Below are positions 2,859 through 32,988 of a stretch of DNA of 33,117 nucleotides, piece after piece. The first letter of the stretch is position 1. Every line of letters starts with the position of its first letter. This DNA comes from Candidatus Peribacter sp. UBA2144 (lineage in GTDB: Bacteria; Patescibacteriota; Gracilibacteria; Peribacterales; Peribacteraceae): contig DCXE01000045.1 in NCBI GenBank assembly GCA_002328295.1, positions 3,349 to 36,465 on the forward strand, given 5' to 3'. The notes beneath the pieces were generated by a model, which was not told where the DNA came from, searched no databases, and saw nothing but the letters and a program-made list of their open reading frames with translations. A program made the position numbers and the translations under genes.

Positions 2859-3071
2859 GATTTTGTTGGCATTATATGGTACAATAATCTGATGGGTATT
2901 GAACCATTAAATGTAAGAGTTACTCCCGGCACAGAGGCAGATACAGCCAAATCTGATGCAACGAGAGAGCAAAACTCTGAAACGTTACAGATATCTGTGC
3001 CAGAAGCAATGTTTGCGCCAGTAAATGGTCTTGTTACAGCCATTGCTGATGGAAATAAAGGATTAATTTGA
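2835..3071 (+). CDS. hypothetical small protein (weak call; start uncertain, possibly ATG 2892)
   Basis: Open frame with A/T-rich third positions. It is in the same frame as ORF 3078..3350, separated only by TGA 3069-3071. Confidence 0.25.
   Translation: MFNGLMSHDFVGIIWYNNLMGIEPLNVRVTPGTEADTAKSDATREQNSETLQISVPEAMFAPVNGLVTAIADGNKGLI
2871..2876 (-). promoter_or_regulatory. -10 box TATAAT, 12 nt upstream of the sufD-like ATG
   Basis: The minus strand reads accaTATAATgccaacaaaatcATG. No SD-like purine run is present. Confidence 0.45.
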
Positions 3072-3077
3072 ACAACT

Positions 3078-3350
3078 TTGGAAAGAACCGACGGTCCTAA
3101 ACTATGTGACGCTATCGGATATCTGCCGGAAGATTATCAAGATGCACTAGCAACATATCTAAGGGAGATGTGGGAAGGAGCAGAACTGGGATCCTTGGGT
3201 GAAATTATCAAAAAATTATATGCAATATTGGGATCCGGTGCTGTATTGGCACTAACTGCACTTATTGAAGAAATGAAACTAAAAGAATTTCCTCCAGAAG
3301 TTAAAAAGCGAAGGAGTGGTGGAGATAGAGGTATAGATGAATATATATAA
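3078..3350 (+). CDS. hypothetical protein (TTG start)
   Basis: 90-codon ORF with genome-typical codon bias and no recognisable domain. Confidence 0.35.
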   Translation: MERTDGPKLCDAIGYLPEDYQDALATYLREMWEGAELGSLGEIIKKLYAILGSGAVLALTALIEEMKLKEFPPEVKKRRSGGDRGIDEYI

Positions 3351-3405
3351 ACTTTAGGCTTTTGCCAAAAGCAATTCCAAAGAAAAAGGAGTAGAATGTC
3401 TTGAT

Positions 3406-3774
3406 GTGAGCGAACAACTCAGACTTGACTTTGAGGCGGCAGAAAAGGCTTCGACAAGTTTAGAAACTAGAAGCCAAGATTTTGATGAAAGCGGGAAAAG
3501 AATCTGGCACAAGCAACGCCGGTATAGAAATCAAATAGATTGGATTCTTGAAGTGTACTATCACCGACTAAAGAAATTTGATTACGACCATGAAAAAGCT
3601 AGAGCGAGCATGATAGAAGATGGATATTTAACACGTAATCCTAAACATGATCCAACGGATCCAAATAGTCTTGAATTCACTCCAAACGATGCTAAACAGC
3701 CATGGGCAAAGAAGCTGCGCAAAAAATCACCCAACCGCTCCCTCCATTTCAACTCCTCTACAAACTCCAGGTAA
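3406..3774 (+). CDS. hypothetical basic protein (GTG start)
   Basis: 122-codon ORF. An aaggag lies 13-14 nt upstream of the GTG. It is convergent with sufB, with a 4-nt gap. Confidence 0.45.
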   Translation: MSEQLRLDFEAAEKASTSLETRSQDFDESGKRIWHKQRRYRNQIDWILEVYYHRLKKFDYDHEKARASMIEDGYLTRNPKHDPTDPNSLEFTPNDAKQPWAKKLRKKSPNRSLHFNSSTNSR

Positions 3775-3778
3775 CATT

Positions 3779-5119
3779 TTAGCCCACAGATCCTTCCATC
3801 TCTAATTCGATCAACCTATTCATCTCAACCGCATATTCAAGCGGAAGAAGTCTGACTATGGGATCCATGAAGCCATTTACAATCATTGCTTTTGCCTCCT
3901 CTTCCGCAATTCCCCTCGAAGTTAAGTAGAATAAATCTTCTGCACTGAGCTTTCCGACTCTAGCTTCATGTGCAATTGTCACATCATTATTTCTTAACTT
4001 TATGTCGGGAATTGTATCGGTTCGACTTAGGTCATCCAGAAGCAGGGCATCACATTCCACACTGACTACAGAGTTGCTCGCATTCTCTCCGATTTTAACT
4101 AAGCCACGGTAAGTACATGTGCCCCCTGCTTTTGAAACTGACTTTGACACAATCTTTGATGATGTATGCGGTGCTGAATGTATTACTTTCGCGCCCGTGT
4201 CTTGCCATTGTTCACCTGACGCGAAGGCGACTCCAAAGTGATCGCTTCTCGCCCCTTCGCCTGCCAGAACTGAACACGGATAGAGCATAGTAACTCCCGC
4301 TCCTAAGTTTCCTCCGACCCATTCTATAACTGCATCTTTTTCTACAATCGCCCTCTTCGTATTTAAGTTATATGTATCCTTGCTCCAGTTTTCAACTGAA
4401 CTGTATCTAACCTTCGATCCTTGCTTTGCATAAATCTCAACGCATCCGGCATGAAGACCCTTAGACCCAAATTTTGGCGCTGAGCATCCTTCTATGTAAT
4501 GAACTTCTGCACCTTCATCAACAATAATCAGAGTATGTTCAAACTGTCCCATGTTCGGGGCATTCATTCGAAAGTAAGCTTGCAGTGGCTCTGTTACAAC
4601 TACTCCCTTGGGGACATAAAGGAATGTTCCGCCTGACCAAACGGCACCATGAAGAGCTGCGAATTTATGATCTGAGTTTGGCACGCATTTCATGAAATAT
4701 TCTCTGACCAAAACCGGGTGTTCTTTGACCGCATCATCCATATCCATGAAGATGACTCCTGACTTTTCCCACTCTTCTTTTAAACTGTGATAGATAATGT
4801 CGGATTCATATTGCGCACCAACACCAGCAAGCCACTTGTGTTCCGCTTCCGGTATTCCGAGCTTCTCGTAAACTTCTCTTATGTGATCCGGAAGCTCTCC
4901 CCAATCATCAGTTGCATCAATTCCCGTCGGTGCATAGTAAGTGATATTATCTAAATTTAAACCTGAAAGGTCCGGACCAAATTTTGGAAGGCTGATTGAC
5001 TCGTATTTACTAAGTGAGTCCTCTCTGTGTCCTCGCATCCATTTAGGCTCATTTTTATCTGACGATATCTGATGCAAGAGATCGGAATTTAGGCCTTTTT
5101 GGAGAAGAGTGGATGGCAC
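3779..5119 (-). CDS. sufB: Fe-S cluster assembly protein SufB (GTG start)
   Basis: Full-length SufB-like sequence (YESDIIYHSLKEEWEKSGVIFMDMDDAVKEHP..., TLIIVDEGAEVHYIEGCSAP, LFYLTSRGIAEEEAKAMIVNGF). Confidence 0.93.
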   Translation of the reverse strand: MPSTLLQKGLNSDLLHQISSDKNEPKWMRGHREDSLSKYESISLPKFGPDLSGLNLDNITYYAPTGIDATDDWGELPDHIREVYEKLGIPEAEHKWLAGVGAQYESDIIYHSLKEEWEKSGVIFMDMDDAVKEHPVLVREYFMKCVPNSDHKFAALHGAVWSGGTFLYVPKGVVVTEPLQAYFRMNAPNMGQFEHTLIIVDEGAEVHYIEGCSAPKFGSKGLHAGCVEIYAKQGSKVRYSSVENWSKDTYNLNTKRAIVEKDAVIEWVGGNLGAGVTMLYPCSVLAGEGARSDHFGVAFASGEQWQDTGAKVIHSAPHTSSKIVSKSVSKAGGTCTYRGLVKIGENASNSVVSVECDALLLDDLSRTDTIPDIKLRNNDVTIAHEARVGKLSAEDLFYLTSRGIAEEEAKAMIVNGFMDPIVRLLPLEYAVEMNRLIELEMEGSVG

Positions 5120-5474: not shown

Positions 5475-5483
5475 TGCTATAAT
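5475..5483 (+). promoter_or_regulatory. extended -10 TGcTATAAT, 11 nt upstream of ATG 5495
   Basis: tatgctataattacactaaataATG; no SD. Confidence 0.5.
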
Positions 5484-5494
5484 TACACTAAATA

Positions 5495-7291
5495 ATGAAC
5501 TCAGAAAATGTATCTTCAGAGGCTCCCAAAGCTCATATCTTGAAGCGATTGGCCAATCGAGTATGGATGATATTAAGATATAAAGTTCTCCCCTTCTGCA
5601 AAAGGAGATGGAAGCTTTTGACTGTTTTAACAGTAATAATCGTGCCATTCCTTCTTCTGCTCATATGGATCTTTGCACCGGAGAGTCCAGAAGTCGTTAT
5701 GGCAACCGCGGAAAGGAGTGATTTGGTACAGACTGTTGAAGCTGTTGGAACCGTAATTTCGGAAAAGGACTTAAAACTCAGATTTCCACTAACAGGCGTC
5801 GTTGGAAAGGTGCTAATTGAAGAAGGCGACAGTGTTGAGGAAAACCAGGAGCTTGCTCATCTAAGGAACGGAGCTCTGAAGGCAGATGTGACTGCAGCAC
5901 AAGCAAGTCTTTCATCTCAATCAGCTCAACTTAAGGAGCTAAAAGAAGGAACTCGTCCGGAAGATATTCTTATTCAGGAAGCAGAGGTTGAAAACAAGAA
6001 GGCGGCTCTTGAGTCCGCGTACGCAACCTTTAATGGAGCCAAAGAGAAGCTGGAAAAATTGAACATGGAAGCCAAGATAAGCTTGTCTGGGTATGTTTCA
6101 ACAGCAAGCAGTGAAACGTCTGAGCAGCTGACAGAAATCAGATCAGCCTTAAGAAAGATAGAAGATGTCTTAGAGGATTCAGCATTAAACCGTGCTGCCA
6201 CATATAACGAGCCTACTGATTTTGAAATGCTGACAAGAAAAAAGGCAAATGCAATACACCAGATAGAACAAATGATTAAATTACTTCCTTCAAATTTCAA
6301 AGACTACAAAGAAGCAATAAGCAAACTGAGGGAAGTGCGAGATACGACCGCGGAAGCGTCCCAAACTATTTCAAAAATGTATTCATTCGTTGCAAATATG
6401 AAGCTGTATCACAACTATGATTTCAGCGACCGAGAAACTCATAAAACAACATTAACTACGCAAAGTAATACAGTTCAAGATGCGTTATCCTCTCTCGATT
6501 CTACTCTCAAGACAATGCGCGATGCATCAGCCGATTACGACACGCAGATTGCAAGTGCCCAGAGCACAATAGAAACTTCCCAGGCAGATATTCAAACCTA
6601 CGAAGCATCTCTAAGGAAGCAGGAAGCCGAGCTTGCAAAGAAGAGGGCAGGAGCCAGGCCTACAGAAATTCAAGCTCAGCAAGCAAGAGTGAATCAAGCA
6701 TATGCCGAATTGAATCGTGCAAAGGCAAAGCTTGAAGACACTATTATCAGAGCCCCAATTGCTGGGGCAATAACAAAAGTTAATCTGAAAGAGGGCGAAT
6801 TTACAGGCGGACTGGATTTGAATGAGTTTGCCCTGAGTATGTTAGGCGCTTCTCCTTACAGAGTTGAAATGTTTGTTGCAGAGATTGACATACCGAAAGT
6901 TAAATTGAGCCAAAGCGGGTCAATTGATTTGGATGCGTTCCCGAACGAAGAGTTTGTAATGAAGGTAAGTGAAATCGATCCGACCGCGACTGACAAAGAT
7001 GGAGTATCCAAATACCGCGTTAAGCTGGACTTCCCTGAGCAAGATATGAGATTGAAGATAGGAATGACCGGAGATGCGGAAATTTATACTGACTTCAGGA
7101 AAGACGTTGTGCACATACCAGGCAGGGCCGTCTTTACGGACGAAAAGGGAGATGAAATTGTGAAGATATTAAAAGACAATAAAGTAATCGAAAGGAAGAT
7201 AAAAACCGGAATGGAAGGAGAAGGCGGTGACGTGGAAGTAATTGAAGGTATCAATGAGGGTGAGACGATAATTCTATTAATTAAGGATTAA
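5495..7291 (+). CDS. HlyD-family periplasmic adaptor / membrane fusion protein (MacA-like) with a long coiled-coil
   Basis: N-terminal TM (LLTVLTVIIVPFLLLLIWIF), a lipoyl-like hairpin halves motif (RFPLTGVVGKVLIEEGDSV ... IRAPIAGAITKVNLKEGEF), and a very long heptad-rich middle region. Confidence 0.85.
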   Translation: MNSENVSSEAPKAHILKRLANRVWMILRYKVLPFCKRRWKLLTVLTVIIVPFLLLLIWIFAPESPEVVMATAERSDLVQTVEAVGTVISEKDLKLRFPLTGVVGKVLIEEGDSVEENQELAHLRNGALKADVTAAQASLSSQSAQLKELKEGTRPEDILIQEAEVENKKAALESAYATFNGAKEKLEKLNMEAKISLSGYVSTASSETSEQLTEIRSALRKIEDVLEDSALNRAATYNEPTDFEMLTRKKANAIHQIEQMIKLLPSNFKDYKEAISKLREVRDTTAEASQTISKMYSFVANMKLYHNYDFSDRETHKTTLTTQSNTVQDALSSLDSTLKTMRDASADYDTQIASAQSTIETSQADIQTYEASLRKQEAELAKKRAGARPTEIQAQQARVNQAYAELNRAKAKLEDTIIRAPIAGAITKVNLKEGEFTGGLDLNEFALSMLGASPYRVEMFVAEIDIPKVKLSQSGSIDLDAFPNEEFVMKVSEIDPTATDKDGVSKYRVKLDFPEQDMRLKIGMTGDAEIYTDFRKDVVHIPGRAVFTDEKGDEIVKILKDNKVIERKIKTGMEGEGGDVEVIEGINEGETIILLIKD

Positions 7292-11809: not shown

Positions 11810-11815
11810 TATAAT
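11810..11815 (+). promoter_or_regulatory. -10 box TATAAT (ggggTATAAT), 11 nt upstream of ATG 11827
   Basis: aaggggtataatgagtttcaacaATG; no SD. Confidence 0.5.
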
Positions 11816-11826
11816 GAGTTTCAACA

Positions 11827-14070
11827 ATGCTTTTATTAGTCCGAATTCAGCAATGGGAAGAGCGAGCGGCCAAACCTGAGCCGCATTTCTCACAATTGCT
11901 CAGAAACCTGCATGAACAGCTTAAGGGAGCCAAAATCAGCTTCGAGTTAGCTTCGATCAACCAGCATATCTATTTCTTTTTAAATGTCCCAAATCAATTG
12001 AAGGAGCTAATGGTCGGACAGATTTATGCCATTTATCCTGATGCTGTTATAGAAGAAGTTGATGGAGATTATGCTAACGCGAAAGCCATTTCTGGTTCTG
12101 TAATGCTTTCGGCTCAGCTTGGAATGCGCCGTCCGGATATTTACCCCTGGAAGAGATTTGATGAATTTGAAGGAGACAGCCTTGCAGGATTGTTCACTGT
12201 AATGAGTAAATCTGAGGAAGGCCAACAGCTTTGGGCACAAATTGTAATGAAGCCGATTGATGATAACTTCAGTTTTAACTTAAGGCGCACTGTTAAATCA
12301 TTCGTAAATAGATTCAGGAAACTTATAAGGTTCAGAGATTTTGTAAAAGCGCGCGGACAAAAAGGGTTCAGAAAGCGTGAAAAAGATGGTCTCGCACAGA
12401 AAGCAGAAGAAAGACAATATAATGTCGCCGTGCGTGTTGCCGCAATTGCAAAGAATCAGGAAAGAGCACAGGGGCAATTGAATGCTCTGACTCAAGCCTA
12501 TGCGCAGTTCAACACTTTGGATTACAACGGATTTAAAATCTGTAAAAAGTCGAAAAATGAAGCTGCGCTTAAGCGATGGCAAGCTCGATTGATGGATGAT
12601 GCTTCATGGATGGGAATTTCGGAAGCGGCCGCTGTGTATCACTACCCTGACCCTGATATTGTTCCGCATATAGTGCACGTTATGGCCAGGAGATCGGAAC
12701 CGCCTTTGGACTTGCCAAAATCTGACGGTTCGGACGTTGTTCCTTTTGGAAAATCCAACTATCACAACCAACAAATCCCATTTGGACTTTTGCGAGCTGA
12801 CCGTGCCCGCCACCTTTATGTAGTTGGAAAATCTGGTACCGGTAAGTCAAAGATGCTTGAGCTTTTGATAGCCACTGACATTAAAGCCGGAAAAGGAGTC
12901 TGTGTAATGGATCCTCATGGAGATTTGGTAGATGCCGTTATTAAGCACATACCAAAGGAAAGAGTTGAGGATGTAATCTACTTTAATCCGATGGATACGG
13001 AGTTCCCAATTGCGTTTAATCCTATGCAAGCTGTGGATCCGAAACTCAAACTGAGAGTTACTATCGGTTTTATAGAGATCTTTAAGAAGCTTTTTGGAGC
13101 AAACTGGACACCTCGCCTTGAGCATGTGCTTAGGCAGACAACACTGGCGCTTTTGGACTCGGAGGGCACTACTGTGTTCTCCATTTTAAAAATGCTTTCG
13201 GACAAGAACTACCGCCAAAAGATTGTCGCGAAAATTGAGGATGCGGTAGTAAAGAACTTCTGGGTAAATGAGTTCGCGGCATGGAGTGAAAAATTTGATA
13301 ACGAGGCGATTACGCCTCTTTTAAATAAAGTTGGACAATTGGTATCTACAAATCTGATCAGAAACATCATCGGACAACCATACAATACGTTTGATATTCG
13401 CCAGGTGATGGATAACGAGAAGATAATGCTTGTTAAACTCAATAAAGGACTTCTGGGAGAAGAAAATGCCGCTCTCTTGGGTGCAATGCTAATTACAAAG
13501 ATCGAGCAGGCAGCTCTGGAACGTGCCGACACTCCCGAAGAGGAACGAAAAACTTTCTATCTTTACTGCGACGAGTTCCAATATTTTGCAACTGATACTT
13601 TTGCAGAGATTCTTTCTGAAGCCAGAAAATATAAATTGTCTTTGACTGTAGCTCATCAGTACATGGGACAATTGATTGATAAAGTTCGAACAACGGTATT
13701 TGGAAACATCGGAACAATCGTAAGCTTCCGTGTTGGAGCGGAAGATGCGGGGATTTTGGAGCAAGAATTTAATCCCATTTTCAAAGTCCGCGACATTATT
13801 AACCTCGCGGTAAGGGAGTTCTATATTAAGATGAGCGTGAAGGGAGAAACACGTGATGCATTCTCGGCAACTACAATGGATTGTACAACTCCCAAGGATT
13901 CCGAAAGTAATAAAGATGCGATAATTGAATTCTCTCGCAAGACATTCTCCAAGCCCAAGGATGAAGTGGAAGATCTGATGAGGAAATGGGACGAAAGCGG
14001 AGGGGACATCTCTCAAGAAGCTTGGTACAGCGGTGCATTAGATGAGGATTTCGCACCTCCCATAGTATAA
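11827..14070 (+). CDS. VirD4/TraG/TraD-like (type IV coupling protein-like) P-loop NTPase with an uncharacterised ~330-aa N-terminal domain; no TM segment
   Basis: Walker A is LYVVGKSGTGKSKM (nt ~12823-12852) and Walker B is FYLYCDEFQYF. It has a TraG/TraD C-terminal-type motif, EARKYKLSLTVAHQYMGQL. No other T4SS genes are in the window. Confidence 0.75.
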   Translation: MLLLVRIQQWEERAAKPEPHFSQLLRNLHEQLKGAKISFELASINQHIYFFLNVPNQLKELMVGQIYAIYPDAVIEEVDGDYANAKAISGSVMLSAQLGMRRPDIYPWKRFDEFEGDSLAGLFTVMSKSEEGQQLWAQIVMKPIDDNFSFNLRRTVKSFVNRFRKLIRFRDFVKARGQKGFRKREKDGLAQKAEERQYNVAVRVAAIAKNQERAQGQLNALTQAYAQFNTLDYNGFKICKKSKNEAALKRWQARLMDDASWMGISEAAAVYHYPDPDIVPHIVHVMARRSEPPLDLPKSDGSDVVPFGKSNYHNQQIPFGLLRADRARHLYVVGKSGTGKSKMLELLIATDIKAGKGVCVMDPHGDLVDAVIKHIPKERVEDVIYFNPMDTEFPIAFNPMQAVDPKLKLRVTIGFIEIFKKLFGANWTPRLEHVLRQTTLALLDSEGTTVFSILKMLSDKNYRQKIVAKIEDAVVKNFWVNEFAAWSEKFDNEAITPLLNKVGQLVSTNLIRNIIGQPYNTFDIRQVMDNEKIMLVKLNKGLLGEENAALLGAMLITKIEQAALERADTPEEERKTFYLYCDEFQYFATDTFAEILSEARKYKLSLTVAHQYMGQLIDKVRTTVFGNIGTIVSFRVGAEDAGILEQEFNPIFKVRDIINLAVREFYIKMSVKGETRDAFSATTMDCTTPKDSESNKDAIIEFSRKTFSKPKDEVEDLMRKWDESGGDISQEAWYSGALDEDFAPPIV

Positions 14071-14188: not shown

Positions 14189-14197
14189 TGATATACT
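14189..14197 (+). promoter_or_regulatory. extended -10 TGaTATACT, 9 nt upstream of ATG 14207
   Basis: tttttgatatacttttaacccgATG; no SD. Confidence 0.5.
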
Positions 14198-14206
14198 TTT
14201 AACCCG

Positions 14207-15886
14207 ATGTCCAATTGCACCCAATGCAACCTCCAATTCGAACTCTCTGACAAAGAACTAGAGTTTTTGAGGCACGCTTCGCCCGAATACAATGGAGTTA
14301 AGTATGAAATCCCTCCCCCATCGCACTGCCCGCAGTGCAGAGTACAGAGGAGGATGGCATGGAGGAATGACAGATCATTTTATAAGAGTAAATGTGACGC
14401 GACTGGAGAAGAAATGATCTCGCTTTATCCCAAAGGAATGCCTTTCAAAGTTTTTCACTCTGACTATTGGTGGAGTGATAAGTGGGATCCGCTTGAATTC
14501 GGACAGGAGTATGACTTTAACAAACCGTTCTTTGCACAATGGGAGGAACTGATGAACAGAGTGCCAAGAAGAAATATGGATCTGGTAAATTGCCAGAACA
14601 GCCAGTACTGCAACTACTGCGGAGACGACAAGAACTGCTATTTGGACATTGCAGGAGAAGCTAATGAGGATTGTTACTACAATTTGTTTACTAAGTATTC
14701 TAAGAACTGTGCTGACTGCACGTTCGCGTATCATTCGGAGCTTTGTTACGAATGTATTCAGGTTTATAACTGCTACAACGTTCGTTACGCGATGTATATG
14801 GATGGGTGTTCTGAGAGTGCCTTTTGTTTTGACTGCAAAGGATGCAAGAACTGCATGCTTTGCGCTAATTTGAGGGATAAACAGTATTACATTCTTAATG
14901 AGCCTCATTCGAAGGAAGAATACGAAAAGAAACTGGAGGAACTTAAACTCAATTCTTTCGAATCTATTCTCCACGTATTTGATATCTGGAAAAAGATGCG
15001 ACTCGAGAAAGGCATCTACCGTGACATGGTGAATATTAATTGTGAAAACTCTACAGGAAATAATCTGAAGGACTGTAAAAATTGTTTTAACTGCTACAAT
15101 GCAACTAACTGTGAGGATTGCGCATACCTTTATGATGTTCTTGATGCGAAAGACTCTCAGGATTTAAACTATTCTCTTTATAAACCAGAAGTTGCTTACG
15201 AATTAATCTCAACTCTTAACATGCGCTTCTGCGCATTCAGCATGGCAACGCATTATTGCAGCAAATCATTTTATTGCGACTTATCTGATAACTCGCATGA
15301 CCTGTTTGGATGCATTGGAATTAATCATGGCAAGTATTGCATCTTAAATAAACAATATTCTCAGTCTGAGTATGAGGAACTTGTTCCAAGAATCATTGAG
15401 CACATGAAGTCGACCAGAGAATGGGGTGAGTTCTTCCCGGTAAACTTAAGCCCAAGCGCATACAACGAAACTGTTGCGCAGGAATACATGCCTTTGACCA
15501 AGGAGGAAGTTGCTTCGCGGGGTTTTAATTGGAGAGAAATGGAAGAAGACATCGGAGAAGTGGAAAGAACTATCCCGGCAGAACAATTACCAGATACGAT
15601 CGAGGAGATTCCGGACGATATCTTGAACTGGGCAATAGTCTGCGAGGAATCGAAGAAGCCCTTCAGAATTGTAAAACAGGAGCTTGCCCTGTATAGACAA
15701 CTCAAGATCCCCGTACCCCGCAGAAGCCCTTTACAAAGGCATAAAGACCGAAATGCTCTGAGGAACCCACGCGGCCTTTGGGAGCGCAAATGCGGCAAAT
15801 GCGGGAAGGATATGCATACGAGTTATGGCCCTGAGAAGCCGGAAACCGTGTATTGTGAGGAGTGTTACCTAGCTGAGGTATATTAA
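14207..15886 (+). CDS. cysteine-rich protein, paralog 1 (N- and C-terminal zinc ribbons, duplicated CxxC-rich core); uncharacterised family
   Basis: 559 aa, with 37 Cys by my count. N-terminus CTQC...CPQCRVQRR, C-terminus RKCGKCGK...VYCEECYLAEVY. It is paralogous to the next two ORFs along the full length. Confidence 0.85.
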   Translation: MSNCTQCNLQFELSDKELEFLRHASPEYNGVKYEIPPPSHCPQCRVQRRMAWRNDRSFYKSKCDATGEEMISLYPKGMPFKVFHSDYWWSDKWDPLEFGQEYDFNKPFFAQWEELMNRVPRRNMDLVNCQNSQYCNYCGDDKNCYLDIAGEANEDCYYNLFTKYSKNCADCTFAYHSELCYECIQVYNCYNVRYAMYMDGCSESAFCFDCKGCKNCMLCANLRDKQYYILNEPHSKEEYEKKLEELKLNSFESILHVFDIWKKMRLEKGIYRDMVNINCENSTGNNLKDCKNCFNCYNATNCEDCAYLYDVLDAKDSQDLNYSLYKPEVAYELISTLNMRFCAFSMATHYCSKSFYCDLSDNSHDLFGCIGINHGKYCILNKQYSQSEYEELVPRIIEHMKSTREWGEFFPVNLSPSAYNETVAQEYMPLTKEEVASRGFNWREMEEDIGEVERTIPAEQLPDTIEEIPDDILNWAIVCEESKKPFRIVKQELALYRQLKIPVPRRSPLQRHKDRNALRNPRGLWERKCGKCGKDMHTSYGPEKPETVYCEECYLAEVY

Positions 15887-15941: not shown

Positions 15942-15949
15942 AGCCACCA

Positions 15950-19640: not shown

Positions 19641-20057
19641 ATGCACTCAAAACTTTCTGACTCTGCACACGTTTTAATACTCGAAACTGGTGAAGAGATT
19701 GTAGAAGGCTTAACTAAGTACTTAACTGAGAATAATATTACCGCAGGATCAATTTCTGGAATCGGTGCTGCGACTGATGTGATATTGAATTTTTATAATA
19801 TGGAAACAAAAGAATATGAGGAGAAGGGTTTCCCGGAGGAACTTGAAATCCTTTCTCTTGTTGGAAATATTTCAATTAAGGAAGGCTCCCCGTTCGCTCA
19901 CTTGCACATTGTTCTTGGTAATAACGAATACGCGTGCATCGGAGGACATCTGAAGTCGGCGCGTGTAGGACCCACTTGCGAGATTGTGATTCAGCAACTT
20001 GATGCTGAGATGAAGAGAGAATTGGATGAGGTTACTGGGTTGTATTTGCTAACATAG
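19641..20057 (+). CDS. PPC (DUF296) domain protein, putative DNA-binding
   Basis: 138 aa with the typical DUF296 layout (LETGEEIVEGLTKY...ITAGSISGIGA...LEILSLVGNIS...HLHIVLG...GGHL). Confidence 0.75.
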   Translation: MHSKLSDSAHVLILETGEEIVEGLTKYLTENNITAGSISGIGAATDVILNFYNMETKEYEEKGFPEELEILSLVGNISIKEGSPFAHLHIVLGNNEYACIGGHLKSARVGPTCEIVIQQLDAEMKRELDEVTGLYLLT

Positions 20058-20912: not shown

Positions 20913-20946
20913 ATGTGTGAGGGGTTAAATGGTAGGGGTGAAGTAT

Positions 20947-22488: not shown

Positions 22489-22851
22489 CTAATGATCTAG
22501 CGCCACCTCCACCAACACCGACACAGCAACAATTAGCACCCCGATCCACCAGTTAAGCAAATTCAGTTGATGAAATAGAACTATTACAGTCAAGCTAATG
22601 CCAAGTAGGATTCCTTGTCGGAGGGAGATGCTTGTTAACTTTCCCATATCCCACATATGGGTTGGCACCATTCTCCAAATACCAATAAAGCAAAGTGCTC
22701 CAACTGTACTAACTGTCAAAAAGAAACTTAGGAAGAAAGCAGGAATAGCCTGAGCAGGCGCAGTTAGCGGACTGACGCGTAAAAGGACCACAAGAAGAGA
22801 AGTGGAAGAGAAGAGAGCCGAGAGGATTATTCCAAATAGAAGCGTGTTCAA
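22489..22851 (-). CDS. small integral membrane protein (4 predicted TM), TTG start
   Basis: 120 aa and almost entirely hydrophobic. It is bracketed by 32-nt direct repeats (22455-22487 and 22931-22962). Confidence 0.5.
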   Translation of the reverse strand: MNTLLFGIILSALFSSTSLLVVLLRVSPLTAPAQAIPAFFLSFFLTVSTVGALCFIGIWRMVPTHMWDMGKLTSISLRQGILLGISLTVIVLFHQLNLLNWWIGVLIVAVSVLVEVALDH

Positions 22852-22860
22852 AGCTAAGTG

Positions 22861-22962
22861 GTAAATTGTAAGCGGAAAATGGAAAATGCTTTATCCATTA
22901 AGCAAAGGATAGCATTATACTCGCTTGCGTATTTTCCATTTACCATTTTCAACTTTCAATTA
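22861..22962. repeat. word-type inverted repeat; the right arm is a direct copy of 22455-22487
   Basis: attttccatttaccattttcaactttcaatta (22931-22962) versus attttccatttaccactttcaactttcaattta (22455-22487) shows 1 mismatch. Confidence 0.85.
22865..22870 (-). promoter_or_regulatory. -10 box TACAAT, 13 nt upstream of the TTG start at 22851
   Basis: The minus strand reads ccgctTACAATttaccacttagctTTG. Confidence 0.35.
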
Positions 22963-22973
22963 CATGTTTATAG

Positions 22974-22979
22974 TATAAT
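22974..22979 (+). promoter_or_regulatory. -10 box TATAAT, 11 nt upstream of ATG 22991
   Basis: tttatagtataattactatacaacATG. Confidence 0.5.
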
Positions 22980-22990
22980 TACTATACAAC

Positions 22991-24022
22991 ATGTCTAACA
23001 GTTCTAAATCCAGCGCCGGCATGTGGGCCGAATATGCAAAGAAAATAAAAAAGGTCTCTACCTTGAACGATCTGGAAGATATTGAACAGGAGCTATTTGG
23101 ACGCAAACAGGGCGTAATGACGCTTGCAATGAAGAAGTTGAAGGATTTAAGTCCCGATGAGAAAAAAGTGCAAGCAAAGGAACTTAATGAACAAAAGCAA
23201 ATACTGGTTGAGGAGCTAGAGAAACTACAGAATGATCTAGAGACTCCCACAGGAGACGTACTTGCCAAAAGTGATTCTATCGATGTGACTCTGGATCTTC
23301 CGGAAAAAGAACGCGGGCACCTTCATCTTATACCCGAATTTATAAGACAGGCAGAGGAAGTTTTTGGACGAATGGGATTTGATGTATTCAGAGGACCGGA
23401 GATAGAACCGGAAGAATACAATTTTGATCTTCTGAATTTTCCAAAAGACCATGCAGCGCGTGACTGGGCTGACGTTTTCTACATGAAAAAGCAAACAGCA
23501 CCCGATAACAGACTGACTCTTCGAGCACACACATCACCATGCCAAGTAAGATACATGCAAAAAAATAAGCCACCCCTCAAGGCTATCTTCCCAGGGAAAA
23601 CATATAGGAAAGACGATGACGCAACGCACTCTCCAATGTTTCATCAGTTGGAAGGATTAATGGTTGGTAAAGATATTACCTTGGCTAACATGAAGGCGGT
23701 AATGATTAAGTGCGTACAGGAACTAATAACACAGGATGCTGAATTTAGATTTCGAACCGGCTACTTCCCATTTGTTGAACCTGGGCTAGAGATGGACATG
23801 AAGTGGACCGGAGAAGATAAGACAAAAGAAGGAGACTGGCTAGAGATTGTAGGATGCGGAATGGTTCATCCGAATGTACTTAAGAATTGTGATATTGATC
23901 CCGACAAGTGGCAGGGATTTGCATTCGGATTCGGAGTTGACCGGATGGTTATGATCAAGCATCGAATTAAAAGTATAAGGGAGTTGTTCCCCGGGGATGT
24001 GCGCTTCCTTAGGCAGTTTTAA
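22991..24022 (+). CDS. pheS: phenylalanine--tRNA ligase alpha subunit
   Basis: HTSPCQVRYM, FRFRTGYFPFVEPGLEMD, GCGMVHPNVL and GFAFGFGVDRMVMIKHRI are class II aaRS PheS motifs. No pheT lies downstream. Confidence 0.95.
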   Translation: MSNSSKSSAGMWAEYAKKIKKVSTLNDLEDIEQELFGRKQGVMTLAMKKLKDLSPDEKKVQAKELNEQKQILVEELEKLQNDLETPTGDVLAKSDSIDVTLDLPEKERGHLHLIPEFIRQAEEVFGRMGFDVFRGPEIEPEEYNFDLLNFPKDHAARDWADVFYMKKQTAPDNRLTLRAHTSPCQVRYMQKNKPPLKAIFPGKTYRKDDDATHSPMFHQLEGLMVGKDITLANMKAVMIKCVQELITQDAEFRFRTGYFPFVEPGLEMDMKWTGEDKTKEGDWLEIVGCGMVHPNVLKNCDIDPDKWQGFAFGFGVDRMVMIKHRIKSIRELFPGDVRFLRQF

Positions 24023-26116: not shown

Positions 26117-26767
26117 TTATGAGACTAACGAGATCTTCGAGAACCAATTCTCCGGATCTTTGGCAAATTGAGCTGCAATTTCAGCTTCTTCCTCTGTAAT
26201 TGAGCCCAATTCCGTGGCTACATCCAGAAGCTGAGGCAGGCCAGAAAGAGGATGATATTTGACACCAAATTGCTGTGCCTTCTCTGCAGATTTCAAGAGT
26301 CCATAATCAAATATTGCCACTACATCCGAAACAGTGGCTTCCCCTTCTTCCCGCAAAGCCTCCACAGCAGAGACTGAACTGCCGCCTGTTGAAATCAGAT
26401 CCTCGATAAGAACTATGTGCTTCCCCGAAGACAAATCCCCTTCAATTCTCTTCTTTGCACCATGCTCTTTTGTACTCTTTCTAACATAAACAAAAGGCAA
26501 CCTTAGAAAGCTTGCAACCAATGCTCCCCATCCAATTCCAGCACTTGCAGTCCCCGCGATTACATCAGGTTCAACATGCAATGCTCGAACTCTGGATAAG
26601 AGCGCCTGCACAACAAAGTCCCTCGCGTCAGGATGGCTATATACCATTCTATTGTCACAATATATCGGAGCCTTGATTCCACTTGTCCATGTAAAAGGTG
26701 GATCAACAGAAACTTTCACTGCACCGATGTTTAGAAGTAGTTCCGCGATTCGTTTGCCATGGGGCAT
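26117..26767 (-). CDS. pyrE: orotate phosphoribosyltransferase
   Basis: PRPP-binding loop HIVLIEDLISTGGSSVSAVEAL and the N-terminal FTWTSGIKAPIYCDNR motif. Confidence 0.9.
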   Translation of the reverse strand: MPHGKRIAELLLNIGAVKVSVDPPFTWTSGIKAPIYCDNRMVYSHPDARDFVVQALLSRVRALHVEPDVIAGTASAGIGWGALVASFLRLPFVYVRKSTKEHGAKKRIEGDLSSGKHIVLIEDLISTGGSSVSAVEALREEGEATVSDVVAIFDYGLLKSAEKAQQFGVKYHPLSGLPQLLDVATELGSITEEEAEIAAQFAKDPENWFSKISLVS

Positions 26768-26784
26768 AGGATTGGGGGGTAGAT

Positions 26785-28221: not shown

Positions 28222-28246
28222 CAATTGACAATGAACAATGGACAAT
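28218..28246 (+). promoter_or_regulatory. promoter-like TTGACA-N17-GACAAT, 8 nt upstream of ATG 28255
   Basis: TTGACA at 28218-28223, a 17-nt spacer, GACAAT at 28241-28246, then tacctgctATG. Confidence 0.5.
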
Positions 28247-28250
28247 TACC
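28218..28250. repeat. caattgaca word array, left inverted arm flanking the four-helix-bundle gene
   Basis: ttgacaattgacaatgaacaatggacaattacc is the reverse complement (imperfect) of 28641-28675. Confidence 0.8.
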
Positions 28251-28254
28251 TGCT

Positions 28255-28629
28255 ATGAAAAAAACAAACCCATTGCAGGTAAAGAGCTTTAAATTTGCAT
28301 TAAATATAATCGAAATTTATAAACAACTCATCAAAGAAAAGGAATTTGTCATGAGTAAGCAATTACTAAGATCAGGTACAAGTATTGGCGCAAATATTGA
28401 AGAAGCTCTACAAGCCCAATCAAAGAAAGATTTTATTCACAAGTTATCAATTGCACTCAAAGAAGCACAAGAAACTGGTTATTGGATCAAGCTGCTCAAA
28501 GAGAGTTCAATTTTGGATAAAGAGAAGGCAACAGATTTATTTATTCAAGCTAAGGAATTAATGAAAATGCTCACAGCTATTATAAAGACGTCTAAAAGCA
28601 ATATCCTTAAACAATCTATCGAACATTAA
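28255..28629 (+). CDS. four-helix-bundle protein (23S rRNA intervening-sequence protein family, TIGR02436-like)
   Basis: FKFALNIIEIYKQL...LLRSGTSIGANIEEA...KDFIHKLSIALKEAQETGYWIKLL is the family signature as I recall it. The start is set at ATG 28255 because the upstream codons are translated repeat. Confidence 0.8.
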   Translation: MKKTNPLQVKSFKFALNIIEIYKQLIKEKEFVMSKQLLRSGTSIGANIEEALQAQSKKDFIHKLSIALKEAQETGYWIKLLKESSILDKEKATDLFIQAKELMKMLTAIIKTSKSNILKQSIEH

Positions 28630-28640: not shown

Positions 28641-28675
28641 CAATTGTCAATTGTCAATTGTCCATTGTCAATTCA
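28641..28675. repeat. caattgtca word array, right inverted arm
   Basis: caattgtcaattgtcaattgtccattgtcaattca. Confidence 0.8.
28644..28672 (+). promoter_or_regulatory. promoter-like TTGTCA-N17-GTCAAT, 7 nt upstream of ATG 28680
   Basis: TTGTCA at 28644-28649, a 17-nt spacer, GTCAAT at 28667-28672, then tcagactATG. Confidence 0.45.
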
Positions 28676-28679
28676 GACT

Positions 28680-29456
28680 ATGAACAACGACTTCCATCTT
28701 ATGATCACTCTTAAAAACGTCAGCAAAGTATTCAAGAAGCAAGCCGTGCTCGAGGACATTTCGCTCAAAATTAAACCTGGCGAGTTTGTTTGCATAGTCG
28801 GCCCTAGCGGAGCCGGCAAATCGACTTTGATTCATATACTTGCCGGAGCCGAAAAGATTACAACTGGAACCATTGAGTTTGACGGGGTCAACTTGAGGAT
28901 TGTTCCTCCATTGGCTCTTAGATTTTTCAAAAGGAGGATTGGAGTTGTGTTTCAAAACTACAGGTTGCTTAGTAAACGTACTGTTGCAGAAAACATCGCA
29001 TACCCTCTGGAAGTCTGCGGAGCTCCGGAGAATTTGATCAAAGCAAGAGTGGAAGGACTTCTTGAAAAGATGCATATGAAACGAAGAGCAAATGCTCTTC
29101 CCCGCGAACTTTCCGGAGGAGAACTTGCCCGCACTGCAATTGCAAGAGCTATTGCACATGGACCTATAGTCCTTTTGGTAGATGAGCCAACGGGCAATCT
29201 GGATCCTGATCAGTCACTTAAGGTTCTTAAACTTCTAAAACAAATCAACAAAGATGGTACAACAGTTGTACTTGCAACTCACGATTTGGAATTGGTTAAA
29301 CAAGTTAAAGGAAGGATTATTTTGATTGAAGATGGAAAGATCACAAAAGATGCAAAACCGCGAGCTTCCAAGAAACATGAGACAGAACCCACTCCAGTTC
29401 AGACTAAATCCAAATCTAAGTCCAAGAAAGTTAAAGTGACGGCTCTGGGATCTTAA
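28680..29456 (+). CDS. ftsE: FtsE-like cell-division ABC ATPase with a Lys-rich C-terminal tail (alternative start ATG 28701 aligns with E. coli FtsE Met1)
   Basis: MITLKNVSKVF..., Walker A GPSGAGKST, signature LSGGELARTAIARAI, Walker B LLVDEPTGNLD. No ftsX is adjacent. Confidence 0.82.
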   Translation: MNNDFHLMITLKNVSKVFKKQAVLEDISLKIKPGEFVCIVGPSGAGKSTLIHILAGAEKITTGTIEFDGVNLRIVPPLALRFFKRRIGVVFQNYRLLSKRTVAENIAYPLEVCGAPENLIKARVEGLLEKMHMKRRANALPRELSGGELARTAIARAIAHGPIVLLVDEPTGNLDPDQSLKVLKLLKQINKDGTTVVLATHDLELVKQVKGRIILIEDGKITKDAKPRASKKHETEPTPVQTKSKSKSKKVKVTALGS

Positions 29457-29603: not shown

Positions 29604-30056
29604 CTAATTTCCTGCCGAATTGTCTTCAATATTACTAACAACGTCCTCTTTGGGCTTCTCCTCACCAATCACCTTCTCTGCTTTCGAAGGAAAGAATCTA
29701 ATCAAAGCTCCGCAAACAACAAGGAAGTAAACCATTTCCGGAACTAAAATGTTCCAAGACGTATTTCCTTGCGCTATCAGAATTAAATCGACTACAAAGC
29801 GTGCCAGATGATAAAGAATCAGAACTATGATTAAGTTTACGTACTTAATAGGCTGCAGAAATGCGAGCGCAGTTGCGATCGCAATAACTACAAGAAGTGA
29901 TCCACCTACCATAGAGAGGTATCTATGCATTGCATCAAGCTCAACCAGATCGTAAATATCCAACAGCATCTGTGATGTGAAAAGCATTGCATACGCGAAA
30001 TAGAGCGTAAATATGAAGGCGATGGCTAGTGTCAGCCTGAGGGATCTTGTGTGCAT
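29604..30056 (-). CDS. hypothetical integral membrane protein (4 TM)
   Basis: 150 aa with four hydrophobic spans and an acidic/Lys C-terminal tail. Confidence 0.5.
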   Translation of the reverse strand: MHTRSLRLTLAIAFIFTLYFAYAMLFTSQMLLDIYDLVELDAMHRYLSMVGGSLLVVIAIATALAFLQPIKYVNLIIVLILYHLARFVVDLILIAQGNTSWNILVPEMVYFLVVCGALIRFFPSKAEKVIGEEKPKEDVVSNIEDNSAGN

Positions 30057-30062
30057 AGGGTA

Positions 30063-30068
30063 AGTTTA
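30063..30068 (-). promoter_or_regulatory. -10-like TAAACT, 6 nt upstream of ATG 30056
   Basis: The minus strand reads caatgTAAACTtaccctATG. Confidence 0.35.
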
Positions 30069-30196: not shown

Positions 30197-30202
30197 TACA
30201 AT
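30197..30202 (+). promoter_or_regulatory. -10 box TACAAT, 6 nt upstream of ATG 30209
   Basis: ccagctacaatacacccATG. Confidence 0.45.
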
Positions 30203-30208
30203 ACACCC

Positions 30209-31255
30209 ATGACCACATATGCCGACTCGGGCGTTAACATAGAGGAAGGCGACAAAGCCTCCAAAAAAGCTTATGAACACGCATCCTCAACTTTTGCCTC
30301 ACGCAAAGGAATGATAGGAGAACCGGTGCAAGAGGAGAACGGATACGCAGGATTTTTGGACATGGAAGATTATTATCTGGTCCAAAGTGATGACTCAACG
30401 GGCTCCAAAATTGATCTGGCCTTCGAAGTCGGCGATCTTGGTACACTTGGATATGATCTGACTGCGATGGTCGCAGATGATGCGGTTTGTGTTGGAGCAG
30501 AACCAGTAAGCATTTCTAATACGCTTGATGTTCCAAAGATTGATTCCGATGAAGTTGATGCATTGATGGGCGGGCTCGCTAAGGCATGTTCTGAACAGAA
30601 GATCGTAGTTCCGGCAGGAGAAATCGCGGAAGTTCCGGGAGCAGTTTCCAAAGGCGTGTGGAGTGCAACAGTTATTGGAGTTGTGGAGAAGGACAAAGTC
30701 CTTAAGCCCGAGACGATTGAAGAAGATGATGTTATTCTGACTCTTAAGTCGGGTGTCGCACGTTCAAATGGATTCTCTCTGATCAGAAAAATACTGACTG
30801 ATAAGTTCGGTGATGATTGGGGAAATCAAGAACTTACAAAAACAATGCTTACTCCAAGTATTGTTTATTCAAAAGCTATCCTCGGTTTAATTGGACGTTA
30901 CAAAGAGGAAAGAAAAGTAAATATTAAAGGAATCGCACACATCACGGGGGGAGGAATTCCAAGCAAACTTGGAAGAGTTTTGAAGCCTTCTGGTAAGGGA
31001 GCTGAACTTACTGATCTTTTCGAGCCTCACAACGCGCTTAAAGAATTGATTGAACTTGGAGAGGTCCCGACCGAAGAAGCTTACAAAACATGGAACATGG
31101 GCAACGGCATGATGCTTGTTGTTTCTCCTGATGAAGTCGATAAGGCTACTACATTACTAAAGGCTGAAGGAGTGGATGCAAAGAAAGCTGGACTTATAAC
31201 TGCAGATCAAGGGGTCCATATTTCCGCTTACGTAGGGGATAAACTGAAGTTCTAG
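30209..31255 (+). CDS. purM: phosphoribosylformylglycinamidine cyclo-ligase (AIR synthetase) PurM-like
   Basis: YADSGVNIEEGDKA, DDSTGSK (DGVGTK-like), GYDLTAMVADDAVCVGAEP, AHITGGGIPSKL, WNMGNGMMLVV. The start is set at ATG 30209 because the ORF-track N-terminus is translated repeat. Confidence 0.88.
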   Translation: MTTYADSGVNIEEGDKASKKAYEHASSTFASRKGMIGEPVQEENGYAGFLDMEDYYLVQSDDSTGSKIDLAFEVGDLGTLGYDLTAMVADDAVCVGAEPVSISNTLDVPKIDSDEVDALMGGLAKACSEQKIVVPAGEIAEVPGAVSKGVWSATVIGVVEKDKVLKPETIEEDDVILTLKSGVARSNGFSLIRKILTDKFGDDWGNQELTKTMLTPSIVYSKAILGLIGRYKEERKVNIKGIAHITGGGIPSKLGRVLKPSGKGAELTDLFEPHNALKELIELGEVPTEEAYKTWNMGNGMMLVVSPDEVDKATTLLKAEGVDAKKAGLITADQGVHISAYVGDKLKF

Positions 31256-31311
31256 CTGTTTCGCAACTTAAAAACTTTGAAAGATAAAATCACTTCTTGT
31301 AGCCTTAAAGG

Positions 31312-32148
31312 GTGCCAGAGTTTCTTCCCGATCCGGAAGTTCAAAAACAAAACAAGATAAACCGTCGTCGATTTATAAAGGCAGCAACTGCAGTTGTAAT
31401 ATACGATTTGTTGCAAAGCGAATATCAGGAGCCTGTGCCTATGCCAAGAATTACATTGCCTGAATTTAAGGAAATAGTTCGCTATGAACTTCCAGGGGTT
31501 AATGTAACCGAAGAGGTAGCACCGCCGAATGTAACAGGAGATGGAATTGGAGAATGGAGCATACCCGAAACAACTTTGTCGGTTATCAGAAGATTATTCC
31601 AGGAAAAACCGCAAGATGTTGTAGCAGATTCAACTGAATGGGTATCCGGATTTCAGGAGCCATTACAGCAAGAAGATGTTAAACCTGCATACGAACCTGT
31701 ATATGAACCTGCATACGAATCTGCATACGAACCTGCGGAGCCGAGCCAAAAATATACTTGCTCCAAAAAAACGCGCAATTCTTGCGATGGACTTAATCCA
31801 AAAGGATACCCAATGTATGTATTAAATACCTTGCCGGAAGATGCTTCCATGCGTGGGTTTATAGATTGGCACCAAAGGGCTGCTCTTAAATTGGACGACC
31901 AATTATACTTCGTCGTTGATGGAAGCCAGGGAACCATATGGAATGGGACACTTGGGTCCTATGTACTCACCAAGAATGAGGGAAGAATGAGGCGCACCCC
32001 ATTCGCATCTATAGCCAGATTCAAGCAAGCCAAATGGGACATTGGCCCCTCTCGCATAGCCCAAGTACTCATGAACGCAGTATCCGAAGAAGAGATGCAA
32101 TCTATGGATGTAAGGCAAAATGAGATAGGTTATCATAATTACGCTTAA
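31312..32148 (+). CDS. hypothetical protein with a Tat-like N-terminal motif and PAYE tandem repeats (GTG start)
   Basis: NRRRFIKAATAVVIY resembles the twin-arginine consensus. The C-terminal ~130 aa have no recognisable domain. Confidence 0.55.
   Translation: MPEFLPDPEVQKQNKINRRRFIKAATAVVIYDLLQSEYQEPVPMPRITLPEFKEIVRYELPGVNVTEEVAPPNVTGDGIGEWSIPETTLSVIRRLFQEKPQDVVADSTEWVSGFQEPLQQEDVKPAYEPVYEPAYESAYEPAEPSQKYTCSKKTRNSCDGLNPKGYPMYVLNTLPEDASMRGFIDWHQRAALKLDDQLYFVVDGSQGTIWNGTLGSYVLTKNEGRMRRTPFASIARFKQAKWDIGPSRIAQVLMNAVSEEEMQSMDVRQNEIGYHNYA
31684..31743 (+). repeat. coding 12-nt tandem repeat (cctgcatacgaa x ~4.5) giving PAYE-PVYE-PAYE-SAYE-PAEP
   Basis: Units lie at 31684, 31696, 31708 and 31720, with a partial unit at 31732. 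Confidence 0.85.
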
Positions 32149-32221
32149 TTCTTGACACCAACTAAATCAATACTGGAATCCAGTATTCTTCTTAAACCCT
32201 CCTTCGTAAAAGTAAGCAAGA

Positions 32222-32230
32222 TGCTATACT
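32222..32230 (+). promoter_or_regulatory. extended -10 TGcTATACT, 8 nt upstream of ATG 32239
   Basis: gatgctatactaacaccccATG. Confidence 0.5.
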
Positions 32231-32238
32231 AACACCCC

Positions 32239-32988
32239 ATGCGCACTCCCGAAGAACTTGCCATAGCCTACAAAGAGCATCAAGAAGCTGATGTGCATGG
32301 ACTTTGGATAGGATCATATATCCAAGACATTGTTTACGGAGGTAATGATGGAATCGTTACAACTTTTGCAGTAGTTGCAGGAACAATGGGAGCAGACCTT
32401 CCGCATTACATAATAATCATTCTGGGACTTGCTAACCTCTTGGCTGACGGAACTTCTATGGGAACTGGCGCATACCTTTCCAAGAGATCCGAACGTGATA
32501 ATTACGAGAGGCTGAGAAAAGAGGAGCTTGAAGAAATTGAAATTGATCCGGAAATTGAAGCGGAGGAAGTTCGGCAAATGTATAGAAAGAAAGGTTTTGA
32601 AGGAAAAGATCTTGAGCGTGCAGTTGAAATAATTACGGCTGACAAAGATCGTTGGGCAGAAGTTATGCTTCATGAAGAACATCACATGACAAAAGAAGCA
32701 TCCGAGAAACCCGTCGTTCACGGATTGCTGACATTTATATCATTCGCAATCTTCGGGGCCATTCCTCTAATCCCCTATTTTATTATCACAAGTGCAGACT
32801 CGCGCTTTCCGGTCGCTATTGTTTCCACTTTCTTTGCATTGGTGCTTTTGGGAGTTGCTAAGAGCAAAATAATGCGTGAGAAGATTTTCCGCGGTCCACT
32901 CGAGATTGTAAGCGTTGGGGCCCTTGGAGCATTTGTGGCTTATGGAGTGGGAGTATTTCTCAAGAGCTTGGTGGGAGTCGCTATGTAG
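32239..32988 (+). CDS. VIT1/CCC1-family iron/manganese transporter
   Basis: [19 protein letters not shown] motif, a central acidic cytosolic helix bundle ([16 protein letters not shown]), and C-terminal TM helices. Confidence 0.88.

Follow-up and report, generated by a model that had tools for sequence, protein, structure and literature searches.

The DNA analysed here (the window) is a stretch of 33,117 nucleotides from Candidatus Peribacter sp. UBA2144, corresponding to positions 3349-36465 of contig C33 in a 93-contig, 1.06-Mb genome with 42% GC and an estimated completeness of 95%. We describe the -10-like hexamers (boxes) that stand immediately upstream of start codons in this window and throughout the genome, together with the Shine-Dalgarno (SD) sequences and the 16S rRNA tail with which they have to be considered. 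The genome uses the standard genetic code, an alternative code having been tried and rejected. The window opens within the 16S rRNA gene, which ends at position 1250, and it carries the pheS gene (22991-24022), whose product shares 92% identity with PheS of an uncultured Candidatus Peribacteria metagenome-assembled genome. The host is therefore a member of the Peribacteria/Peregrinibacteria within the candidate phyla radiation (CPR; Patescibacteria). A total of 957 genes was called with a self-trained dicodon model, and the starts of the longest open reading frames (ORFs) were used for spacing counts, spacing being the number of nucleotides between the -10 hexamer and the start codon. Boxes were scored with a genome-derived, 8-column position weight matrix (PWM), and a match was defined as a score of at least 6 bits at a spacing of 6-11 nt.

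A sequence-only reading of the window had listed fourteen starts with a TATAAT-like hexamer 6-13 nt upstream and proposed that leaderless or near-leaderless expression is the norm. All fourteen hexamers were located at the spacings it gave. Eleven of them are good TAnnnT boxes at 6-12 nt, ten of which score 6.2-10 bits and the eleventh, before ATG 2858 on the reverse strand, 4.8 bits; the other three (28255, 28680 and 22851) are weak. Among the good boxes on the forward strand, TGcTATAAT lies 11 nt before ATG 5495 of an HlyD-type membrane-fusion protein (5478..5497; 9.8 bits), and TATAAT lies 11 nt before ATG 11827 of a VirD4/TraG-like coupling ATPase (11810..11829; 10.0 bits). Three tandem paralogues (window 14207-19569), of about 560 aa each, show a weak match to a treble-clef zinc finger at the C-terminus, and each is preceded by a GGTATACT box of its own. 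For the first, TGaTATACT lies 9 nt before ATG 14207 (14192..14209; 8.0 bits); for the second and third, GGTATACT lies 8 nt before ATG 15950 (15936..15952; 9.4 bits) and GTG 17884 (17870..17886; 9.4 bits), respectively. Being paralogues, these three are not fully independent cases. The same GGTATACT box is found 6 nt before ATG 19641 of a PCC-domain protein (19629..19643; 9.4 bits), which is a perfectly leaderless geometry.

Further along the forward strand, TATAAT precedes ATG 22991 of pheS by 11 nt (22974..22993). The box is kept in pheS orthologues (70-72% identity), which exhibit TAGTAT 9 nt before the ATG despite diverged surroundings. TACAAT lies 6 nt before ATG 30209 of purM (30197..30211; 8.9 bits), and because of this adjacent box we favour ATG 30209 as the purM start over the longer ORF that begins at TTG 30119. 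TGcTATACT lies 8 nt before ATG 32239 of a VIT1-family transporter (32225..32241; 9.1 bits). On the reverse strand, TAAACT (30063-30068) lies 6 nt before ATG 30056 (30054..30068; 6.2 bits), and TATAAT (2871-2876) lies 12 nt before ATG 2858 of a SufBD-domain protein (2856..2876; 4.8 bits), where the implied leader measures up to about 5 nt.

Two cases absent from the earlier listing were added on the forward strand: TGgTACAAT (hexamer 2880-2885), 6 nt before ATG 2892 (2880..2894; 9.1 bits), and TAGAAT, 8 nt before GTG 3406 (3392..3408; 7.0 bits). The starts at ATG 2858 and ATG 2892 are divergent, with 33 bp between the start codons (2859-2891) and only 3 bp between the two boxes. Of the weak cases, GACAAT, 8 nt before ATG 28255 (28241..28257, forward strand), and GTCAAT, 7 nt before ATG 28680 (28667..28682, forward strand), are without T at position 1 or A at position 2 and make unconvincing -10 boxes; the former belongs to a CAATTGACA-type repeat, and the latter lies within an inverted copy of a repeat of this type. 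The third, TACAAT, 13 nt before TTG 22851 (22849..22870, reverse strand), falls outside the genome-wide spacing peak and precedes a TTG start; here there is probably a short leader, or another start codon is in use. Over the whole window, the pattern TATAMT-N6-11-ATG occurred 12 times, versus 2.69 ± 1.51 times in dinucleotide shuffles, and none of the 100 shuffles reached 12.

The same arrangement was observed throughout the genome. At longest-ORF starts, the pattern TA[TCA][AC][AC]T was counted 48, 27, 31, 18, 11, and 15 times at spacings of 6, 7, 8, 9, 10, and 11 nt, respectively, whereas spacings of 4-5 nt gave only 3-4 and the background at other positions was about 5. Motif discovery by expectation-maximization (EM) on positions -35 to -1 of 908 genes identified tGnTAnaaT as the dominant upstream motif and the sole strong one, with a lambda of 0.31-0.32 (about 31% of the genes); a spacing of 6 nt accounted for 26% of the EM sites, and spacings of 7, 8, and 9 nt for 13-14% each. 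The preferred distance anticipated by the sequence-only reading was thus recovered by genome-wide motif discovery, with an onset at 6 nt, a maximum at 6 nt, and a tail that extends to 11 nt. Among longest-ORF starts, 17% had a PWM match, whereas among internal in-frame ATGs the figure was 0.8%. With every candidate start within the first 240 nt admitted, 235 of the 935 genes were matched, versus 34 expected by chance, and 84% of the start codons in this re-selected, box-adjacent set were ATG.

The position of a gene in its transcription unit affected how often a box was found. Genes with a divergent upstream neighbour are certain to begin a transcription unit; among the 314 genes of this type, the excess of boxes over chance was 35-56%, depending on the threshold, compared to 14-28% among genes located at most 40 nt behind a same-strand gene. 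The contrast between first and internal genes is therefore about twofold, and not absolute. Boxes of at least 7 bits numbered 106 at spacings of 6-11 nt, 7 at 0-5 nt, about 2 per position at 12-19 nt, and 71 at 20-59 nt, so that 106 of the 197 strong -10 boxes within 150 nt of a gene start (about 54%) are in the leaderless position; the smaller second group implies leaders of about 13-35 nt. All the in-silico checks that the sequence-only reading had suggested favoured its interpretation, with the reservation that "the norm" stands for about 31% of all genes and 35-56% of certain first genes; it does not extend to all genes, and a short-leadered class exists.

The boxes display the architecture of a promoter. 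T1, A2, and T6 of the hexamer hardly vary: their frequencies in the EM model are 94-98%, with the proviso that the aligned sites had been chosen with the PWM. The GG that had been noticed upstream of several boxes turned out to be the G of an extended -10 element (TGn): in the sites aligned genome-wide, a G lies 2 nt before the hexamer in 76%. When sites were aligned on the hexamer, a weak -35 TTG was observed exactly 17 bp upstream. The usual preference of RNA polymerase is for a purine at +1 preceded by a pyrimidine at -1. Where the spacing is 6 nt, the position before the start codon is a pyrimidine (C or T) in 81% of the genes, which fits this preference with the A of the ATG as +1. Where it is 7 nt, 67% of the genes have a purine at -1 and 71% a pyrimidine at -2, which suggests a leader of 1 nt. 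The 84% share of ATG among the start codons of the re-selected set is a further sign of transcription that begins at the ATG.

Boxes of the same type were not restricted to protein-coding genes. About 10 of the 36 tRNA genes have one 6-13 nt before the mature 5' end (G000 C3:3151, C10:8609, C24:13682, C35:5635, C51:1703, C78:1272, and C79:3417, among others), so that their precursors would have 5' leaders of 0-6 nt. Moreover, the same -10 motif is found at a variable distance (13-81 nt) upstream of the leadered genes with a C-run that are described below. Its presence before tRNA genes, together with its variable distance at leadered genes, indicates a transcription signal, not a translation signal. 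Loss of RNase P was considered as a companion of the box-adjacent tRNA genes and rejected, as RnpA is present and the RNase P RNA, missing only from this fragmented assembly, was found in 18 of 18 family relatives.

Very short intergenic regions were also observed between divergent genes. In 29 of the 157 divergent pairs, fewer than 60 bp separate the two start codons, and some are separated by only 16, 22, or 36 bp; such gaps are so small that there is no room for leaders. Examples of such back-to-back pairs are G000 C74:7340-7356, C43:9589-9611, and C65:5961-5997, in addition to window 2859-2891. In pairs 16-36 bp apart, the two -10 boxes overlap or abut, giving what appear to be bidirectional leaderless promoters.

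The absence of SD sequences reported for the window was found to hold for the genome. GGAGG was present at positions -20 to -5 in only 4 of the 916 genes, SD-like pentamers at candidate starts were less frequent than at control codons, and no enrichment of GGAG, GAGG, or AGGA was detected upstream of the starts of these 916 genes. The frequency of G falls to 0.11-0.15 just upstream of starts, and EM seeded with AGGAGG converged on the -10 motif. No SD was seen before the internal genes of the ribosomal-protein operon on contig C37. An altered SD that would match the mutated 16S tail (GGAAG, AGGAA, or AAGGA) was tried as well and rejected, since none of these words was enriched. A few genes with a raised GC content at third codon positions (0.51-0.64, versus a genome mean of 0.38) bear good SD-like sites (AAGGAG, AGGAGA); these genes, located outside the window (G000 C49:4253-6048, C52:18155, and C40:5421), may be foreign cassettes. 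Initiation components have not obviously been lost: the genome encodes a bS1-like protein and IF3, and bS21 was a weak match below the cut-off.

The 3' tail of the 16S rRNA, CACUUCCUUA (1241..1250, forward strand), has CUUCC in place of the anti-SD core CCUCC, a change equivalent to C1536U. Three further genomes of the genus share exactly this tail. Two family members have a CAUCUCC tail, one family member and most class-level relatives have the canonical tail, and three class-level relatives read CCGCC, CCUCU, or CCACC. The 3' trailer that follows, ACCAGGGAA here (with G as a final-base variant) and ACCAGGGAG in relatives, changes together with the tail, and this covariation indicates that the anti-SD change is real and not a sequencing error. 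The drift of the anti-SD core, to CUUCC here and to UCUCC, CCGCC, CCUCU, and CCACC in relatives, is consistent with no SD pairing. The trailer ACCAGGGAA (window 1241-1266) can pair with the anti-SD tail, as UUCC...GGAA versus CUCC...GGAG across the family, and conservation ends right after it; the pairing is probably a pre-rRNA processing stem. The 16S gene itself (C33:2807-4598, with its 3' part in window 1-1250) is 1792 nt long, compared to 1533 nt for the model, and thus contains at least one insertion; insertions in 16S genes are common in CPR bacteria.

To compare these features with those of relatives, 0.2-0.4 Mb from each of six other genomes was passed through the same pipeline. The three genomes from the same family (G008, G011, and G018) exhibited the -10 peak at a spacing of 6 nt and no SD. 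Matches in the peak numbered 55 versus 17 expected in G008 (59% GC, canonical anti-SD), 45 versus 13 in G011 (47% GC, anti-SD UCUCC), and 86 versus 33 in G018 (50% GC, 16S not found); lambda was 0.25-0.30 in G008 and G018, where EM converged on the motif. In the three genomes from other families of the class (G020, G021, and G029), the anti-SD is canonical, -10 boxes next to start codons are few or absent, and SD sequences are not enriched; these genomes have instead a localised TTAA(C) motif at about -15 to -12. Since G008, G020, G021, and G029 keep CCUCC yet are equally SD-free, the loss of SD sequences predates the anti-SD mutation and is more widespread. The leaderless-type layout is a trait of this family. 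The UUAAC/UUUUAA motif of the sister families, at about -15 to -10, was observed at loci L064-L083 and L183-L222 of G020, G021, and G029 as well as in the tuf and groES upstream regions L113-L124 and L148-L158; it is similar to a segment of the epsilon enhancer of phage T7 gene 10, UUAACUUUA.

The data show the motif, how it is spaced, the statistics attached to it, that relatives conserve it, that SD sequences are lacking, and that the anti-SD has changed; from these observations we infer the positions of transcription starts and the mechanism of translation. In our view, these sigma-70 -10 boxes are probably set so that mRNAs start at, or 1-5 nt before, the start codon, in a leaderless-type, SD-free arrangement. 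The hexamers would be the -10 elements of ordinary sigma-70-type promoters, with the consensus tGnTAnaaT and a weak -35 TTG 17 bp upstream, from which RNA polymerase would start either on the A of the start codon or 1-5 nt ahead of it. Such mRNAs would have no or almost no leader, and hence no ribosome-binding site, and would be translated through direct binding of an initiator-tRNA-carrying ribosome to the 5'-terminal AUG, a pathway that is established in Escherichia coli, mycobacteria, Deinococcus, and archaea. Genes built in this way would make up about 31% of the total and about half of those that come first in a transcription unit; the remaining genes would be operon-internal or have short leaders of about 13-35 nt, and would not use SD pairing either.

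Some points weigh against this interpretation. The leaderless status of the box-adjacent genes is drawn from geometry. About one in three of these genes has a spacing of 9-11 nt and, with transcription starting 7 nt after the box, would have a leader of 2-5 nt; such mRNAs may not behave as truly leaderless ones. The 14-28% excess at genes close behind another one means either that there are many internal promoters or that boxes are to some extent over-called. Start calls came from a simple gene caller and from the motif itself, which brings some circularity into the re-selected set; the longest-ORF analysis and the controls are independent of start re-selection. Finally, IF3 is present in the genome, and in E. 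coli this factor disfavours leaderless initiation.

The boxes could also be real promoters whose adjacent ATG is often unused, translation beginning downstream on leaders that happen to start with ATG. The starts are predicted ones, and longest-ORF starts are sometimes wrong, as illustrated by purM (TTG 30119 versus ATG 30209). However, coincidence would not explain in-frame start codons that stand precisely 6-8 nt from the box with a frequency 10-20 times that at control ATGs. PheS alignments, moreover, reach residue 1 in relatives that keep the box-ATG arrangement, and several of the starts are followed within a few residues by the beginning of a Pfam domain (PCC at residue 9, VIT1 at residue 28). 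We regard this explanation as very improbable.

Slightly less credit still is due to the possibility that TAnnnT is an A/T-rich, non-SD ribosome-binding signal in leadered mRNAs, as in group B of GeneMarkS-2 (Bacteroidota). The hexamer does lie at a distance from start codons that resembles that of a ribosome-binding site, an excess of 14-28% was found at genes closely behind a same-strand gene, and the genomes of the sister families have an A/T-rich localised motif, TTAA(C), instead. This explanation nevertheless fits poorly with the full sigma-70 architecture (TGn, near-invariant A2 and T6, and the -35 TTG at 17 bp), with the hard lower bound of the spacing at 6 nt, or with the pyrimidine at -1, which is expected before a transcription start. 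It also leaves aside the presence of the motif 6-13 nt before tRNA genes and at variable distances upstream of leadered genes, and the fact that the box is about twice as frequent at certain first genes as at internal genes. That TATAAT-like hexamers simply occur near ATGs in intergenic DNA and were picked out by the reader, as its A/T-richness and the 3 poor matches among the 14 listed boxes might suggest, can be dismissed almost entirely, chance having already been refuted by the shuffle control (12 matches versus 2.7 expected in the window, a number that 0 of 100 shuffles reached) and by a genome-wide positional peak about 10 times higher than flanking positions in the same upstream regions, which recurs in three further family genomes with GC contents of 47% to 59%.

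A second class of starts was characterized by a run of C residues. CCCC peaked at positions -13 to -11, with counts of 11, 22, and 9, versus about 2.3 per position elsewhere. Overall, a C-run flanked by T/A and ending 5-10 nt, mostly 7-8 nt, before the start was counted in about 70 genes, compared to 0.5% of control ATGs. Two examples, both on the reverse strand, were observed in the window: an AACCCC run (20921-24), 8 nt before ATG 20912 of a SIMPL/DUF541 protein (20910..20924) and without an adjacent -10 box; and a TACCCCCC run (26774-79), 6 nt before ATG 26767 of a phosphoribosyltransferase (26765..26779). The distance from the C-run to the upstream -10 box is variable, and 12 of the 56 C-run genes lie at most 30 nt behind a same-strand gene, which indicates that the run is positioned relative to the start codon, in the manner of a ribosome-binding site. 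Among the carriers, Pfam identified EF-Tu, GroES, HU, SSB, GAPDH, and the ribosomal proteins S15, S17, L13, L7/L12, and L1; judged by sequence, trigger factor, GreA, and SHMT also appear to belong to them. Many of the C-run genes are of the highly expressed type (tuf, groES, hup, ssb, gap, and ribosomal-protein genes).

The conservation of this element differed from gene to gene. Upstream of tuf, a U-run followed by CC(C)(C) that ends 7-9 nt before the ATG was found in 16 of 16 family members and in 0 of 10 class-level relatives, which have UUUUAA or UUAAC there. Upstream of groES, the run was observed in about two thirds of the family members. Before rplM, it was not conserved across the family, where only loose TCC/CTCC patches were seen; the element is therefore not universal. 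In each of the four family genomes, no localised hexamer was more enriched than TTCCCC.

Several partners were considered for this element. Pairing of UUCCCC with the 16S 3' trailer ACCAGGGAR was unsupported, the enriched word being TTCCCC and not TTCCCT, and was further disfavoured by the occurrence of the same word in genomes with AGGGAA and with AGGGAG trailers. Since the trailer covaries with the tail, it is better explained as forming the usual pre-rRNA stem with the anti-SD. A search of the 16S rRNA for a different stretch with the sequence GGGGAA in the family but GUUAA in the sister families gave none, and the existing G-runs lie in stems or are universal. The bS1-like protein is an obvious candidate reader of a pyrimidine tract, and the partner of UUCCCC could be bS1, another protein, or an rRNA segment. 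We tentatively suggest, while rating it below an even chance, that UUCCCC, ending 7-8 nt before the AUG and present on about 60-70 genes, tig among them, replaced SD/anti-SD pairing on leadered and operon-internal mRNAs in this family; in the sister families, UUAAC occupies the same position. If this is true, UUCCCC would represent a new kind of bacterial ribosome-binding element; it is in any case a testable candidate for the recognition of highly expressed leadered genes.

The arrangement described here can be compared with known systems. According to the main text of Lomsadze et al. 2018 (PMC6028130), group C of GeneMarkS-2, composed mostly of Actinobacteria and Deinococcus-Thermus, has a Pribnow box 6-8 nt from first-in-operon starts, with 25-50% or more of the transcription units predicted to be leaderless; Mycobacterium tuberculosis (Cortes 2013) and Deinococcus deserti (de Groot 2014) are cited there as experimental examples. 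The present genome resembles this group in the short distance between the Pribnow box and first-gene starts, in its sigma-70-type promoters, and in a similar leaderless share: the -10 box lies at a short, fixed distance far above chance, and the signal is concentrated at first genes (35-56% versus 14-28%). In group C, as presented in that text, SD sites serve all other genes and the anti-SD has stayed intact, whereas here no SD enrichment was found anywhere and the anti-SD core is mutated. In addition, the host belongs to the CPR, a group that is not named in the main text of PMC6028130. The genome is thus like group C with regard to first genes, but is not a typical member.

A list of SD-scarce organisms in the part of PMC10783764 considered here includes Ca. 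Peribacter riflensis (7% SD genes, without CCUCC), SR1, Campbellbacteria, and Wolfebacteria. The present genome, with a 16S tail without CCUCC and a very low fraction of SD genes, resembles these CCUCC-less organisms (class iv of that paper) in its altered tail and its absence of SD. Promoter position and the replacement of SD sequences in the CPR are not treated in that part of the paper; here, the replacement consists mostly of box-adjacent, leaderless-type starts. Bacteroidota/Flavobacteriia (group B) share the genome-wide loss of SD and have a localised non-SD motif at first and internal genes, which compares with the UUCCCC class here and with UUAAC in the sister families. Their motif is A-rich and their mRNAs are leadered, whereas the main class here would be leaderless and the secondary motif is C/U-rich. 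Archaea of group D (Haloferax, Sulfolobus) are similar in that most of their transcription units are leaderless, and the same part of PMC10783764 states that the anti-SD can be lost as leaders disappear; the archaeal promoter, however, is a TATA box about 26 nt upstream, compared to a bacterial -10 box 6-8 nt upstream here.

The layout itself is known from other bacteria. For Peribacteria, no description of a leaderless promoter layout was found in the literature, and the paper on the first Peribacteria genomes makes no mention of promoters or SD. Leaderless first genes, no SD anywhere, and an anti-SD free to drift would represent an extreme state, which bears on how translation initiation evolves once SD pairing has been abandoned. 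In practice, gene callers and expression designs that assume SD sequences will misplace starts in such genomes, the choice between TTG 30119 and ATG 30209 in purM being one example.

Other observations were made in the course of this analysis. Intergenic spacers are rich in short tandem words (CAATTGACA, TTTTAAC, AAGTTCT, and others), often located just 5' of promoters or C-runs; these were observed in the window at 1400-1416, 28218-28250, and 28640-28675, and in many upstream regions genome-wide. On the reverse strand, window 24223-25863 contains a gene for a 546-aa protein with a dockerin domain and a Planctomycete-type extracellular motif. This stretch has a GC content of 54.6%, compared to 42% for the genome, and the gene looks horizontally acquired.

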